Assembly: GCF_003019035.1 (NCBI RefSeq)
Contig: NZ_CP027447.1
DNA: 64,000 nucleotides
Origin: Escherichia coli
GTDB taxonomy: Bacteria > Pseudomonadota > Gammaproteobacteria > Enterobacterales > Enterobacteriaceae
Reading direction: 5' to 3' (one strand)
This document shows positions 1-5,804 of the stretch, in pieces. Within the stretch, counting starts at the first letter, position 1. Every line of letters starts with the position of its first letter. The notes below the pieces were generated by a model. That model was given only the letters and a program-made list of their open reading frames with translations. It was not told the origin of the DNA and did no database searches. The position numbers were made by a program, and so were the translations under genes.

Positions 1-636
1 TCTGTTAGCCTCAATCTCTACGTCTGTTTCTGTGTCAATGTCTAAATCATCGAGGATTGGCGTATCTAATTTATCATAGTGCAGAGCAATGTGGGATAAT
101 TCATGCATTAATGTAAACCAAAAGTAATCATATCTCGAATATCTTAAACTTAGACCTATGACTGGTGTTTTATTTGGTAAACAAAAGGTACAGCCATCTA
201 ACTTCATACCTTTGAATGATTTTTCAATTATTAGAATAATACCATATTCTTCTTTAAGGATTCTTGAAATATAATGAATAGATTGTACATCCCTGCTCAA
301 ACTTGCAATTATTCCGAGGTTTTCAAAATCCAGATCTGTGAAGACCTTTGTATTTCCTTTTAAATAGGTGTTTAATGACTTTTTTTCTATTAATGATAAC
401 CATAAATTTATGAGTTCAGAATTAGCATCATCTCTTTTTCTAAATAGTTTATTTTTGTTAAATGTTAAATTTTTTGCTACATCAAGTAGGAATTGATTTT
501 CGTTTTCCATTTCTGGTTTACGGGAAATAATATCTTTTATTTTTTTGCTGTTTTTTATCTTTTGGAAATTTAGTAAAATTTCCAAATCAGACTCACTAAA
601 CTGATTTGATACAAAGAAATCTTTCTCATGCGGCAT
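1..636 (-). CDS. ImmA/IrrE-like HEXXH zinc metallopeptidase domain protein, partial (3' end runs off the window)
   Basis: Absent from the ORF track because it is truncated. Manual minus-strand translation from ATG 636..634 gives about 210 codons with no stop, including ...IGLSLRYSRYDYFWFTLMHELSHIALHYDKLDTPILDD... (HELSH at about 105..91). The start overlaps the stop of the upstream ORF by 11 nt. Confidence 0.5.
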   Translation of the reverse strand, partial: MPHEKDFFVSNQFSESDLEILLNFQKIKNSKKIKDIISRKPEMENENQFLLDVAKNLTFNKNKLFRKRDDANSELINLWLSLIEKKSLNTYLKGNTKVFTDLDFENLGIIASLSRDVQSIHYISRILKEEYGIILIIEKSFKGMKLDGCTFCLPNKTPVIGLSLRYSRYDYFWFTLMHELSHIALHYDKLDTPILDDLDIDTETDVEIEANR

Positions 637-1273
637 TTGAAATTCCTCCGAGAGTTGATGCGACAACCTGTGATGCCTCATAAAATCGGAGATTTTCTTT
701 TTCATGGTCGACGCCAAAATCAGTCATGCCAAGATGGTTATAGAAACCCTCTGCACTTGGGAGTGCATGTAGGCAAAAACCAGGTCTATACCCCCAGTTT
801 GAACAGGCATAATTAATTGTATGTTGGATAAGCTCTTTGCCTACTCCACTATATTTAGGGGTAAAGTTAGGACGAGGACGATTCCAGTATGCTGTTGCAA
901 TATAATCCACGTAGAAAATTTTATTATTATCAAATCGACTTTCTTTTGGATGGTAAAGAACACAAACACCTTGAACTGCGTCGTTTATTTGCAGAAAAAA
1001 CCACTGATAATCATCACCATTACATTGCAAAAGCTTGCGGCACCAGTCCCAATGCCAATCAGAAAGGCTGTTATCTGCCAGAATTTTCCTTGCTAACTCG
1101 TTATCAGTGGCCATACCGGGGTTAGCAGTAATTAGAGCTGACAATAAATCAGCACGATAGGCACCCCATTTGCTCTGCAAGTCAACCACTTTAGCATAGT
1201 CAATCCCTACGTGAATTTGGTAATCAACTGATTTTCCTGAACAATTTTCAACGACCATAAGCTCCCTTTCCAT
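626..1273 (-). CDS. GNAT-family acetyltransferase-like protein (215 aa)
   Basis: ORF track. The segment ...KYSGVGKELIQHTINYACS...GFCLHALPSAEGFYNHLGM resembles GNAT motifs A/B (R/K-x-x-G-x-G, then A..FY...G). Its stop overlaps the start of the downstream peptidase-like ORF. Confidence 0.45.
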   Translation of the reverse strand: MERELMVVENCSGKSVDYQIHVGIDYAKVVDLQSKWGAYRADLLSALITANPGMATDNELARKILADNSLSDWHWDWCRKLLQCNGDDYQWFFLQINDAVQGVCVLYHPKESRFDNNKIFYVDYIATAYWNRPRPNFTPKYSGVGKELIQHTINYACSNWGYRPGFCLHALPSAEGFYNHLGMTDFGVDHEKENLRFYEASQVVASTLGGISNAA

Positions 1274-1505
1274 TGTGTCGGCTCATTTTGACTAATAATA
1301 CAACTTTATAGTCTTTAAGAATGCTCTGCTGGTCAAATTTCTTATTTGATCTATAGAAGGCTATGTTTTGAAGCTGGTTGTTAATCTGGTTATGATGTGG
1401 TCATATTAGAATTGGTAAATCAAACCAATTTTGTTGGTATGAATGATGGTATCTTCGCTAATGTAATATGCTTTATTCACTAAAAATCATAAGGATAGTT
1501 GCGAT

Positions 1506-1528
1506 GTTCGAGTCCGGCATCCGCACCA
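1506..1528 (+). other. tRNA 3'-end-like fragment (T-loop GTTCGAGTCC ... ACCA), not a complete tRNA
   Basis: GTTCGAGTCCGGCATCCGCACCA resembles the T-arm/acceptor 3' end of a tRNA (similar to the 3' end of tRNA-Leu leuX as I recall it). The upstream sequence does not form a cloverleaf. A small hairpin plus T-tract follows at about 1546..1568. Confidence 0.3.
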
Positions 1529-2203: not shown

Positions 2204-4252
2204 ATGTATGGAAAAATGGAAAAAGTTTATGATACCACTAGAATTAGTAATCTTGCTAACGACCCGAAACAGTTTTGTTCTTTTTTTTGTGAGTACATAA
2301 AAAGAGATGATATTAGTATAGATATCGCCTTGGATGTGCTGAGAATATCTTCCATCTATTATAATAGATTTTCAGTTCAGACTGAAGTTGAGTATAACAA
2401 TACATTCAAAAAATGTATTAATGAGCTAGTAAACTCATTTCCTGATAACATTGAACTAATCTCTGAGTTCGAGAGTCAATGTAAAATTATGCATGATATA
2501 AATAATTCTTTCTTTGCGGCTACAAAATGTGCTGGTATTTGGCGTAAAAATACAAAAAAATCACATGCATTAATACTTAATCTCATCATGTTTTGTGAGA
2601 TGTTTTTATCATTATTATCATCCTTGGTTGTGGTCAATGATCCTAAAAAAATGAAGAGGATTTTTCCATTGTTTATCGTTTCTGAAAATATTAATATTCA
2701 TGCTGAACCTGATATCGAATATTTTCGAGTTATCGATAGGGCATTTGATGAGGTAGCCAATTACACCGGAAGAATATTTTCTTATTTACGGACTCATGGG
2801 CCATTGAAACTAACTTCTTGTGTGAATAAACAAACCTTGCTTTCAATGGGAGGGTACCTTAATGAGTGGAATGTTTTTGACTCATTAAGCAGAGTAAGAG
2901 ACTTTTTCAGACTAAGTAGTGCAGTATTTACAAAATTGGATAATAACATTTACTCTCTTGAGGTTGATAGTTTTTGTTTATACCGAGATTATGAGATTGC
3001 AAGAAATAGACTAATGATGAGAGCGTCACATCTATATAGCGAAGTTCATGAATTTAGTAACAAACATTTTCATCTAAATAGTTGGGTAAAGGATCATATG
3101 CCATCTTACTTAAATTCTGATGGCGTTTTTAGCTCATTTCATCTAAGCGAGTTGGAAAATATGTCTCCTGATGACCTTCATGAAGAATATGGGAATATAT
3201 CATTATTTAATTGGGTGCACGCTTATCAATGTTTAGTCGAGTTATCTAAAGAAGAAATGAGCAAAAGATTTTCATCGACAAAACCTATACCCCTACAGTT
3301 GGATCGCTGGCTGATCATAAAAAGCCGTGAGAGTTGGTTATCATTCTTTCAACGTAAGGGGATTGCAGTAGATGCAGCAAAAAAACTGATAGATTATTTT
3401 ACCTTCAATTCAAAATCACATGATCTTAATGATTGCCCATTTATTCCCTGTATGGACGGTTTATGCTTAATGCCTGCATTAATAGCAAATAGCTCAGTGA
3501 CTCGCTCTCTAATGTCATTATTTGGTTCCAAAAAAATTTCTCAAGCAAGTAAAGGGCGATTTCATGAGCAACAATTTATAAAACAAGTTCGTGATGCGGG
3601 GATTAAAGCTTCTCCAATTGATGCTCATGCTAATTATCAGTGCGATTGCGTGATTCTCCTGGATGATTGTTTGATTTTTACAGAACTAAAATCAAATGGT
3701 CAACCAATATATTATGGTAAGTACTATCAGCAAGTGTGTAACATCGTTGGAGATAGCTCATTAATACATGATCATAATAATAAATTTATGCGTTCTTATT
3801 TTCAACAAATAAATCGAATTTCTGAACATTATCTTAATCATCTTAATGTGATCATTAAAGAATTCGAACTACCATCAACATGGCAACCCAAAGGTGTGTA
3901 TAAGCTTATTGTTACTACAACTATGCTCGGTGGGAAATATCATGTGGATGATACATATGTAGCGGACAAATATGCATTATCTAGTTTTTTTCAACGAATA
4001 CCTGGAGTGATATATCAAACAAATGAAAATGGAAAAATGGCGAAAAATATCATTGATGGGTTTGAGTGTTGCGAAGGGGAAATCACTATCGATAAGTTTA
4101 TAGATTATCTTTCCTCTTTGCCCAGTATTAATGCTGTACGTAAAAATATAAAAAAATTAACTTATAGTGTTCGATTTAATGAAAAATTAGTCCATCACCC
4201 TTATTATGATTCTTGGGCTTTTGGCCCATATATTCGTAAGGGAAATGATTAG
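2204..4252 (+). CDS. Hypothetical protein, 682 aa, very AT-rich; possible PD-(D/E)XK-type nuclease motif in the C-terminal third
   Basis: Long uninterrupted ORF in the track. N/K/I/F/Y-rich composition, no recognisable Walker motif. The segment ...CDCVILLDDCLIFTELK... fits a hhhD...ExK nuclease-like pattern. A hairpin plus T-tract follows immediately downstream. Confidence 0.6.
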   Translation: MYGKMEKVYDTTRISNLANDPKQFCSFFCEYIKRDDISIDIALDVLRISSIYYNRFSVQTEVEYNNTFKKCINELVNSFPDNIELISEFESQCKIMHDINNSFFAATKCAGIWRKNTKKSHALILNLIMFCEMFLSLLSSLVVVNDPKKMKRIFPLFIVSENINIHAEPDIEYFRVIDRAFDEVANYTGRIFSYLRTHGPLKLTSCVNKQTLLSMGGYLNEWNVFDSLSRVRDFFRLSSAVFTKLDNNIYSLEVDSFCLYRDYEIARNRLMMRASHLYSEVHEFSNKHFHLNSWVKDHMPSYLNSDGVFSSFHLSELENMSPDDLHEEYGNISLFNWVHAYQCLVELSKEEMSKRFSSTKPIPLQLDRWLIIKSRESWLSFFQRKGIAVDAAKKLIDYFTFNSKSHDLNDCPFIPCMDGLCLMPALIANSSVTRSLMSLFGSKKISQASKGRFHEQQFIKQVRDAGIKASPIDAHANYQCDCVILLDDCLIFTELKSNGQPIYYGKYYQQVCNIVGDSSLIHDHNNKFMRSYFQQINRISEHYLNHLNVIIKEFELPSTWQPKGVYKLIVTTTMLGGKYHVDDTYVADKYALSSFFQRIPGVIYQTNENGKMAKNIIDGFECCEGEITIDKFIDYLSSLPSINAVRKNIKKLTYSVRFNEKLVHHPYYDSWAFGPYIRKGND

Positions 4253-4874: not shown

Positions 4875-5804
4875 TCACCCCCTAAAAACCTCTTTCCGAT
4901 GCCACTCCACAAATCCCTCATAAGGGTAATTTTTACGTACCTGCGGCAACGCAATAGTTTTCCCGTCAAAATCCCAGAATAGTTTCTCAACGATCCCTCC
5001 GCCGTTTACCGCATCTGATACCAGTACCCGCATATTTTCATCCAGGCCAATCGATCCTTTATCAAAGGCTTTATGGTGTATTGCACAAAGCGCCAGACCA
5101 TTAGGAATTTCACAAGGACCGCCGTGCTGTTTCCATTTTATATGCGCCGCTTCCAGCGCGACGGTGGTGTCGTCGTGGCGCATATTAAAGCCACATATCG
5201 CGCACTGGTAGTTATAAGCGCGTAATACATTTTTGCGAAATAACGGGTCGCGCTGTTTACGGATTTGCTGGAGATCAAAACCCAGTTCGTCAGCAATTTC
5301 TTCCTGAATACTCTCGGTGAAGTGCGCTTCGAGTATCTGTTGCGCCAGAGTATTGATGAGTTTTTTATTGCCAGTTACCAGGGCGTAGTGCTGTTCATCG
5401 AAACCGCCTGCAACGTGGTATTCAGTCAGTTCCTTCACTGGTGGTTGTCGGCTGCTCCCTGCTGTTGAGCAAAGCCCGGCATTGTGTAATTGCCAGAATC
5501 CGTCGCCTTGTAATCGCCAGAACGGCATATCAGGTCGGTACTGTGAACGCTGTGGCCCAAAACGTTCCAGTAAATTGTGCAGAGGTTCGTAGATTTCCGA
5601 TCCATAATCGAAAAGGCGCGGATGCCCATTCAGGTATCCCGCTAATACGTATAGCAGTAACAATGGTTTATGCGGCGCGCGCTGTTCACCCTTGTGCCAG
5701 ATTTTTATATTGGCAATTGCCTGCTGTAGCGATTTACTGGAAGCCATTGATATCCCTGGCAGTGAAATAATTGCGATCATGCTCGCAAATTTTCTGCTGT
5801 TCAA
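4875..5804 (-). CDS. HNH endonuclease domain protein with uncharacterised N-terminal domain (McrA-like architecture)
   Basis: ORF track. C-terminal ...YQCAICGFNMRHDDTTVALEAAHIKWKQHGGPCEIPNGLALCAIHHKAFD... is an HNH signature (C-x2-C ... H ... N ... C-x2-H). The true start may be the internal Met near 5747. Confidence 0.6.
   Translation of the reverse strand: MNSRKFASMIAIISLPGISMASSKSLQQAIANIKIWHKGEQRAPHKPLLLLYVLAGYLNGHPRLFDYGSEIYEPLHNLLERFGPQRSQYRPDMPFWRLQGDGFWQLHNAGLCSTAGSSRQPPVKELTEYHVAGGFDEQHYALVTGNKKLINTLAQQILEAHFTESIQEEIADELGFDLQQIRKQRDPLFRKNVLRAYNYQCAICGFNMRHDDTTVALEAAHIKWKQHGGPCEIPNGLALCAIHHKAFDKGSIGLDENMRVLVSDAVNGGGIVEKLFWDFDGKTIALPQVRKNYPYEGFVEWHRKEVFRG

Follow-up and report, generated by a model that had tools for sequence, protein, structure and literature searches.

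The closest described relatives of the locus considered here are two phage-defence systems. PD-λ-2, from Escherichia coli ECOR42, is a toxin-antitoxin (TA)-like abortive-infection (Abi) system (Vassallo et al. 2022, PMC9519451). Its first gene is HigB-like; its second, PD-λ-2B, encodes a peptidase with an Xre-type helix-turn-helix (HTH) that is toxic alone and is rescued by PD-λ-2A; and its third, PD-λ-2C, encodes a P4-antitoxin-like protein that is needed for defence against λvir and is not needed for neutralisation (PMC9519451). The gop-β-cII system protects against λ and P1, its gop component being toxic without β (Rousset et al. 2022, PMC9122126), and the phage accessory gene orf184 triggers its toxicity (Silas et al., bioRxiv 2023.04.06.535777). 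More broadly, ImmA-type antitoxins have been described as a hub with swappable toxins (Ernits et al. 2023), and an earlier prediction was of three-component TA systems in which an Xre-COG2856 fusion is the core and RelE or PIN proteins are the toxins (Makarova et al. 2009). We describe here a four-gene cassette that begins within positions 1-1273, on the minus strand, of a 64,000-nt stretch of E. coli contig NZ_CP027447.1 (the window), and that is probably a defence variant related to both systems. Its genes encode a GNAT-fold protein (A), an ImmA/IrrE-type (M78) peptidase (B), a Beta protein (C) and, in convergent orientation, a cII/sce7726-like protein (D); our literature searches found no description of this GNAT, M78, Beta and convergent cII architecture.

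Positions 1-1273 are the promoter-proximal half of the cassette. The missing sequence beyond position 1 was supplied by near-identical E. coli loci (two genomes examined in detail, with locus L001 as the reference), from which we place the last 70 codons of B and the whole of C and D beyond that position. C is a 362-aa 'beta family protein' (PF14350) whose gene overlaps B by 8 nt in the two E. coli loci, and D is a 187-aa 'sce7726 family protein' (10161-10724 in L001) encoded convergently, with its 3′ end overlapping that of C. Comparison with the defence models of PADLOC v2 assigns B to PD-Lambda-2_B (2.4e-47, across profile positions 175-396 of 402 only), C to PD-Lambda-2_C (1.8e-47) and D to the 'cll' model of gop_beta_cll (1.3e-22), and the NCBIfam sce7726 model matches D with 149.6 bits (cutoff 70). 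Of the two known relatives of C, PD-λ-2C is more similar to it than P4 β is.

The arrangement is strongly conserved. We scanned one genome per species, which yielded 48 loci that were annotated with custom hidden Markov models, and every one of the 44 genome loci on sufficiently long contigs has the A, B, C order with convergent D; three of the remaining loci are cut by contig ends and one contains a GNAT fragment. The hosts span the Gamma-, Beta-, Alpha- and Deltaproteobacteria, Verrucomicrobia, Planctomycetota, Treponema (Spirochaetes), Riflebacteria and Bdellovibrionia. Context look-ups from A (in Pantoea, Burkholderia and Herbaspirillum) and, independently, from B (in Erwinia, Yersinia, Pseudomonas and a metagenome) gave the same picture at all seven loci, with a GNAT-like gene followed by Peptidase_M78, Beta_protein and a convergent Phage_P4_cII, and the whole cassette is also found on four IMG/VR viral contigs. 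Junctions were compared in 52 complete loci, for which the start calls are approximate: B and C overlap in 50 of these, the 3′ ends of C and D overlap in 47 (median 24 nt), and C and D converge in all 52, including one (L059) with an inserted segment. The pairwise identities of the four proteins correlate with each other at r = 0.89-0.91, and the cassette has therefore been inherited as one unit. The four genes are kept while their neighbours change completely, and in Burkholderia, Herbaspirillum and Pseudomonas the cassette is found in chromosomal contexts without an adjacent integrase.

Within the window, gene A occupies positions 626..1273 on the minus strand, as are all features of the two genes given below. 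Its longest open reading frame (ORF) encodes 215 aa; translation probably begins at the second ATG (position 1258), giving a 210-aa product, because homologues begin there (MIVFN, MIVCK or MLLCN) and because RefSeq annotates this start in one examined E. coli genome. The first 212 of the 282 codons of gene B lie at 1..636, open without a stop from MPHEKDFF to the window edge. A and B share 11 nt (626..636), with the A stop codon ending at 626 and the B ATG at 636-634, and a GGAGG Shine-Dalgarno sequence for B can be read within the 3′ end of A at 645..649, 8 nt before the ATG. Among the 52 related loci, A and B overlap in 40 and are separated by at most 7 nt in the others; this conserved start/stop overlap supports co-transcription and translational coupling of A and B. 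The pairing is not a chance one, since more than 50 independent loci have the two ORFs intact and in synteny. A scan for σ70 promoters and terminators revealed no convincing promoter upstream of A, with fewer promoter-like sites than in shuffled sequence, and Rfam gave no match within positions 1-2300.

The similarity of A to known families is confined to its last 56 residues (142-197), which match Pfam Acetyltransf_10 at 6.5e-5. Structure prediction and fold search place the protein in the GNAT fold, with the order β1-α1-α2-β2-β3-β4-α3-β5-α4-β6-β7, and the six top Foldseek matches include the toxins KacT (5zgn) and AtaT (6gtr); we regard the GNAT fold as established by these models. A profile search of Protein Data Bank (PDB) chains with A returned only spurious matches to ceruloplasmin. 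The motif-B region, A174-E-G-F-Y178-N-H-L-G182 (728..754), was recognized by alignment conservation, with A174 and Y178 invariant in an alignment of 13 sequences and at least 95% conserved across 54 loci. Many GNATs, the TacT and AtaT toxins among them, use a motif-B tyrosine as general acid, and by analogy Y178 may have a catalytic role in A. The loop between β4 and α3, W130-N-R-P-R-P…K-Y-S-G-V-G145 (839..886; delimited by alignment, secondary structure and conservation), contains a family-specific insertion, W130-N-R, that is invariant and stands ahead of the acetyl-CoA motif. For the putative acetyl-CoA pyrophosphate loop itself, most members have [KQR]-[YF]-x-G-x-G, as compared with Q/R-x-x-G-x-G/A. 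A word-index protein search found ten relatives of A and so understated the family; an exhaustive profile search recovers 1013 cluster representatives with a cutoff of E≤1e-3, of which 527 also pass E≤1e-10. A thus belongs to a sizeable family for which there is no Pfam, NCBIfam, PADLOC or PHROGs model.

Gene B is 282 codons long in the near-identical E. coli loci (11788-12636 in L001), and Pfam Peptidase_M78 matches the window fragment at 6.2e-6 and the full-length protein at 2.6e-10, as it does all 29 homologues aligned. The HELSH motif (H178, E179 and H182; codons at 91..105) provides the predicted zinc-binding and catalytic residues, and E207, in an E-x-E-A-N motif (codon at 16..18), probably supplies the third ligand for zinc in the M78 site, a role that we presume from the ImmA/IrrE family at large. 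H178, E179, H182, H186 and E207 are invariant in the 29 homologues and at least 95% conserved in the 54 loci, and all of the putative metal-binding residues fall inside the window. An AlphaFold2 model of B (pLDDT 87.8) has as its top Foldseek matches PprI (8sln), IrrE (3dti and 3dte) and CapP (7t5t), with probability 1.00, and a Mycobacterium tuberculosis transcriptional regulator (6cyy) is also among the top fold matches. Sequence and model agree in identifying B as an ImmA/IrrE zinc metallopeptidase (M78, PF06114, COG2856) with an intact predicted HEXXH+E site. Weaker PADLOC matches are to capP and RmrA (8.7e-9). The PADLOC alignments of B begin past the HTH part of the profiles, and the N-terminal 130 aa are predicted to form long helices with no match to an HTH fold.

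Much of what the first-pass annotation of the window had proposed for this pair is borne out. It had the 215-aa ORF ending 11 nt inside the start of a downstream ORF (626-1273 against an ATG at 636, as re-read from the sequence), and the latter running off the window with an HELSH…H motif, which is what we find (212 sense codons, HELSH at 178-182 and H186). Its identification of the downstream gene as an ImmA/IrrE-like peptidase holds at full length, with an uninterrupted 282 aa in near-identical loci, the Pfam match and the PprI/IrrE and CapP folds, and the protein it called GNAT-like does adopt that fold on structure prediction, the signal in its sequence being weak. The co-transcription and coupling that it read from the overlap agree with the junctions of the related loci, 40 of 52 of which overlap, the gap never being greater than 7 nt.

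For C and D there is less to be learned from structure databases: sequence profile searches of the PDB with the Beta and cII-like proteins gave chance matches only, RSV F and RagA among them. A protein search with Beta returned GNAT-type cassette members only. In D, the residues E28…D39…E51-x-K53 are invariant across P4 cII, the cII of phage Rac-SA53 and all cassette D members, and this signature, taken as a motif alone, may correspond to the PD-(D/E)xK nuclease pattern. The overlap between the 3′ ends of C and D (10707-10724 in L001; present in 47 of 52 loci) may provide antisense or transcriptional-interference control. We note also that in Pseudomonas sp. QTF5 (L032, 3115-4185) the Beta gene has an in-frame stop and the other three genes are intact, which suggests that loss of Beta is tolerated in this single case, where sequencing error is possible. 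This one Beta pseudogene would fit with PD-λ-2C being unneeded for neutralisation.

The cassette resembles PD-λ-2 in its order, in which a small first gene precedes genes for an M78 peptidase and a P4-Beta-like protein, the latter two being homologous, in its overlapping or tightly packed genes, and in its carriage on mobile elements. It differs in three respects. Slot A of the cassette encodes a 210-aa GNAT-fold protein whereas that of PD-λ-2 encodes a HigB-like toxin; the cassette B protein, about 120 aa the shorter of the two, has no Xre/HigA-like HTH; and the convergent D gene is strictly kept, whereas the validated PD-λ-2 clone is described as having three genes. That clone (ECOR42 QOYB01000002, 228989-232396) includes about 390 bp of flank beyond the three genes, such that any cII-like gene of about 560 bp in ECOR42 would be truncated in it; if ECOR42 does have a cII-like gene, D would be dispensable there for anti-λ defence.

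The right half of the cassette corresponds instead to gop-β-cII of phage P4, for which the name reportedly goes with Ghisotti 1990 and the system label with 'Rst_gop_beta_cll'. P4 is annotated with gop, a beta family gene and a convergent sce7726 family gene (cII), using the same RefSeq family names as the cassette, and in both cases Beta (PF14350) is followed by a convergent cII/sce7726-family gene carried as cargo of a mobile genetic element. P4 gop-β-cII is TA-like, and the TA-like reading of the cassette parallels it. The differences are that two genes, encoding the GNAT and the M78 peptidase, precede Beta in the place of gop, that cassette D is about 187 aa long as compared with 264 aa for P4 cII, and that a terminator separates beta and cII in P4 whereas the 3′ ends of C and D overlap. 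A further beta and convergent cII pair adjoins hok/mok in the lambdoid prophage Rac-SA53 (L003, 3989-5624), with an unannotated upstream gap of about 500 bp that could hold a gop-like ORF.

Related arrangements are found on plasmids. An Agrobacterium plasmid carries a PDC-M63A-like gene followed by an Xre-peptidase (PD-Lambda-2_B, 9e-74), beta and a convergent sce7726 gene; its B protein aligns with PD-Lambda-2_B profile positions 71-397, and an HTH was detected in it at residues 76-133. An Acinetobacter plasmid also has a PDC-M63A-like slot A, and the B homologues on the two plasmids are 414-418 aa long. An hhalign comparison revealed no relationship between the A family and the Agrobacterium slot-A protein. 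By these comparisons slot A is swappable, predicted to hold a HigB-like, a PDC-M63A-like or a GNAT-like protein, and the GNAT version coincides with the apparent loss of the HTH from B.

Several other systems share parts of this organization. RosmerTA (RmrT/RmrA) and the NetFlax 'ImmA antitoxin hub' likewise combine an ImmA-type peptidase with interchangeable upstream toxin-like genes, the toxin often being first, with the differences that RmrA has an N-terminal HTH and the system two genes, whereas the cassette has no HTH and its Beta and cII-like genes are obligate; the similarity to RosmerTA is confined to the peptidase domain. GNAT/ribbon-helix-helix (RHH) TA systems (TacAT, AtaRT, KacAT and ItaRT) have in common with the cassette the GNAT fold, the motif-B tyrosine and a small mobile operon with overlapping genes. 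They differ in that the partner of A is a peptidase and that A is some 40-50 aa longer, with the WNR insertion in its β4-α3 loop; sequence similarity of A to these toxins is undetectable in NCBIfam and PDB sequence searches, and no RHH, Xre or other HTH gene is present in the cassette in the loci examined. ImmA/ImmR of ICEBs1, IrrE/DdrO and CapP/CapH share with B the M78 fold, the HEXXH…E site and the setting on mobile elements or in defence loci, and differ in that no HTH repressor is encoded in or beside the cassette, so that the substrate of B must be something else.

A distant GNAT-like subfamily (matching the profile at about 1e-20; L012, 4784-10117, and also L013 and L065) occurs in other M78 operons, which consist of an RHH gene, a GNAT-like gene, a gene for an HTH protein of about 160 aa and a capP-like M78 peptidase, followed by a caspase and a HamB-like helicase. 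The upstream RHH gene is found in the distant subfamily only, and hhalign of B against the capP-like peptidase of L012 gives a local match in the HEXXH region only. These operons suggest that the coupling of GNAT and M78 proteins is older and broader than the cassette itself.

Because PD-λ-2 and gop-β-cII, which are homologous in three of the four components, are validated Abi and anti-phage systems, we think it quite probable, from homology, that the cassette is a TA-like Abi defence variant of the PD-λ-2/gop-β-cII type. A number of observations weigh against this. The defence activity is suggested by homology of B, C and D only, and A has no match in NCBIfam, PADLOC v2 (none at E≤1) or PHROGs. 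As fold matches of A, RimI (12.5) and Ard1 (12.3) equal the TA toxins, and the modelling therefore establishes the GNAT fold and does not discriminate a toxin subtype; the acetyl-CoA loop is moreover relaxed in some members (QFSQVGS and EVFGAAR). An Xre HTH defines PD-λ-2B, and Pfam detects an HTH in none of 29 members of the B subfamily (∼274-300 aa); the slot-A protein of PD-λ-2 behaves as a neutraliser and not as a toxin (PMC9519451), which bears on any toxin role for A; and the PADLOC 'gop' model, which matches P4 gop itself at 4.8e-70, finds no gop homologue in the cassette. Neither the installed Pfam-A, in which no model matches D, nor the search of PDB sequences supports a PD-(D/E)xK assignment for this protein. 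Finally, the sequence at window positions 1-1500 is rare, being found in 4 of 5426 complete E. coli genomes (98.2-99.8% identity).

The first-pass annotation had considered the two window genes a possible regulatory or TA-like pair, and the TA-like part of this agrees with the homology to PD-λ-2, with the amendment that the unit comprises four genes rather than two. Its remark that a GNAT partner is unusual does not stand, as peptidases of this HTH-less subfamily are invariably partnered by the GNAT. It also pointed to ImmA/IrrE peptidases acting on partner regulators; in the classical ImmA model the protease cleaves an HTH repressor, and there is no HTH partner here.

If the cassette is such an Abi system, A and B would be made in a fixed ratio by translational coupling and would form a complex in which each keeps the other inactive. 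C would sense phage infection and couple this to release of the A/B complex. Once released, A could acetylate a component of translation and so arrest growth, by analogy with TacT, AtaT and KacT and in the slot of the HigB-like toxin; alternatively, growth arrest could follow from proteolysis by B, by analogy with PD-λ-2B, which is toxic when over-expressed alone. We give roughly equal weight to the two, and it is a tentative proposal in either case, drawn from these analogies, that A is the toxin or, with no better prospects, that B is. D may serve as a nuclease effector or an accessory factor, to judge from its E…D…ExK signature. A somewhat doubtful extension is that the A-like family, with an obligate M78 partner in at least two types of operon, represents an unrecognised acetyltransferase-protease switch, in which the protease would process or license the acetyltransferase, or acetylation would gate the protease or Beta.

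We have considered three other explanations. The first, that the cassette is a pure addiction module which stabilises its island by post-segregational killing and has no role in phage defence, draws on the location of the cassette on an integrative mobilizable element, on its TA-like overlapping genes and on GNAT toxins and ImmA-type antitoxins being classical TA parts. We consider it unlikely, given that the closest relatives, PD-λ-2 and gop-β-cII, were both recovered or validated as phage defences, that the cassette is also chromosomal without an adjacent integrase in the three genera named above, and that four strictly conserved genes exceed what addiction needs, with the reservation that the two roles are not mutually exclusive. 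The second explanation, which we hold to be a little less likely still, is a switch of the CapH/CapP or ImmR/ImmA type, in which B would sense a signal such as DNA damage and cleave a repressor, the GNAT acting as a modifier; this would switch on genes nearby, whether those for excision and transfer of the island or those of an adjacent defence system. The weak capP and RmrA matches and the PprI/IrrE and CapP folds of B are in keeping with such a switch, as is the existence of an HTH partner in the distant operons with RHH, GNAT, HTH and capP-like peptidase genes, but an HTH is encoded by no cassette gene and found in none of the 29 B members, and the PADLOC alignment starts at position 175, past the HTH. 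In addition, four genes that are kept amid changing neighbours constitute a self-contained cassette and not a regulator of a particular neighbour. The third, that A is an ordinary metabolic or resistance acetyltransferase beside an unrelated peptidase gene, is highly improbable in the face of 44 syntenic loci out of 44, the overlapping junction, identities that correlate at about 0.9 with those of B, C and D, and the same cassette at all seven look-up loci.

The element that bears the cassette in L001 measures about 11.8 kb; it starts at tRNA-Leu (leuX) with an integrase, also carries a replication initiator and a relaxase, and has the cassette as its last cargo. In the window, alignment with L001, L002 and L014 identifies a degenerate, attR-like remnant of the leuX tRNA-Leu 3′ end (GTTCGAGTCCGGCATCCGCACCA) at 1506..1528 on the plus strand, which by this alignment marks the right end of the integrative mobilizable element; it is the putative boundary of the carrier, lying outside the cassette. 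A search of the window with ARAGORN detects no intact tRNA. The sequence from about position 1431 on belongs to a common leuX-region island, which about 1879 E. coli genomes share, and since this second leuX-region island lies beyond the repeat at 1506-1528, the islands are in tandem at leuX. The A protein is 98% identical in Pseudocitrobacter faecalis and the Beta protein 99% identical in Klebsiella quasipneumoniae, showing that the element moves among the Enterobacteriaceae.

The neighbouring island contains two further genes of note. A 682-aa ORF (2204-4252, plus strand) has no Pfam match at E≤10 and no PADLOC match; it is a conserved 'hypothetical protein' in matching E. coli genomes, and at least 330 genomes hold most of the region. 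At 4875-5804 on the minus strand is a gene for a 309-aa protein annotated as a 'phosphorothioated DNA-binding restriction endonuclease', a modification-dependent nuclease of the SBD/HNH type, for which PADLOC gives an HNH match at 3e-25 and a weak type IV mREase match. The 682-aa ORF adjoins this restriction-type gene within the leuX hotspot and could be a defence gene that has yet to be characterised.

The cassette links PD-λ-2 and gop-β-cII, two validated anti-phage systems, by joining genes B and C, as known from PD-λ-2, with the convergent cII of P4. If a GNAT resembling translation toxins can replace HigB, slot A would probably be the position of an effector or of a decoy for an effector, and B would therefore probably act on protein partners rather than as a transcriptional repressor. 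Current defence-finder models would miss the A family, and such loci would be called incomplete or be left uncalled. The acetyltransferase-protease switch, if true, would represent a new Abi effector chemistry, distinct both from HigB-type PD-λ-2 and from GNAT/RHH toxins, and if it can be worked out it could explain the action of the long-enigmatic Beta and cII proteins of P4.

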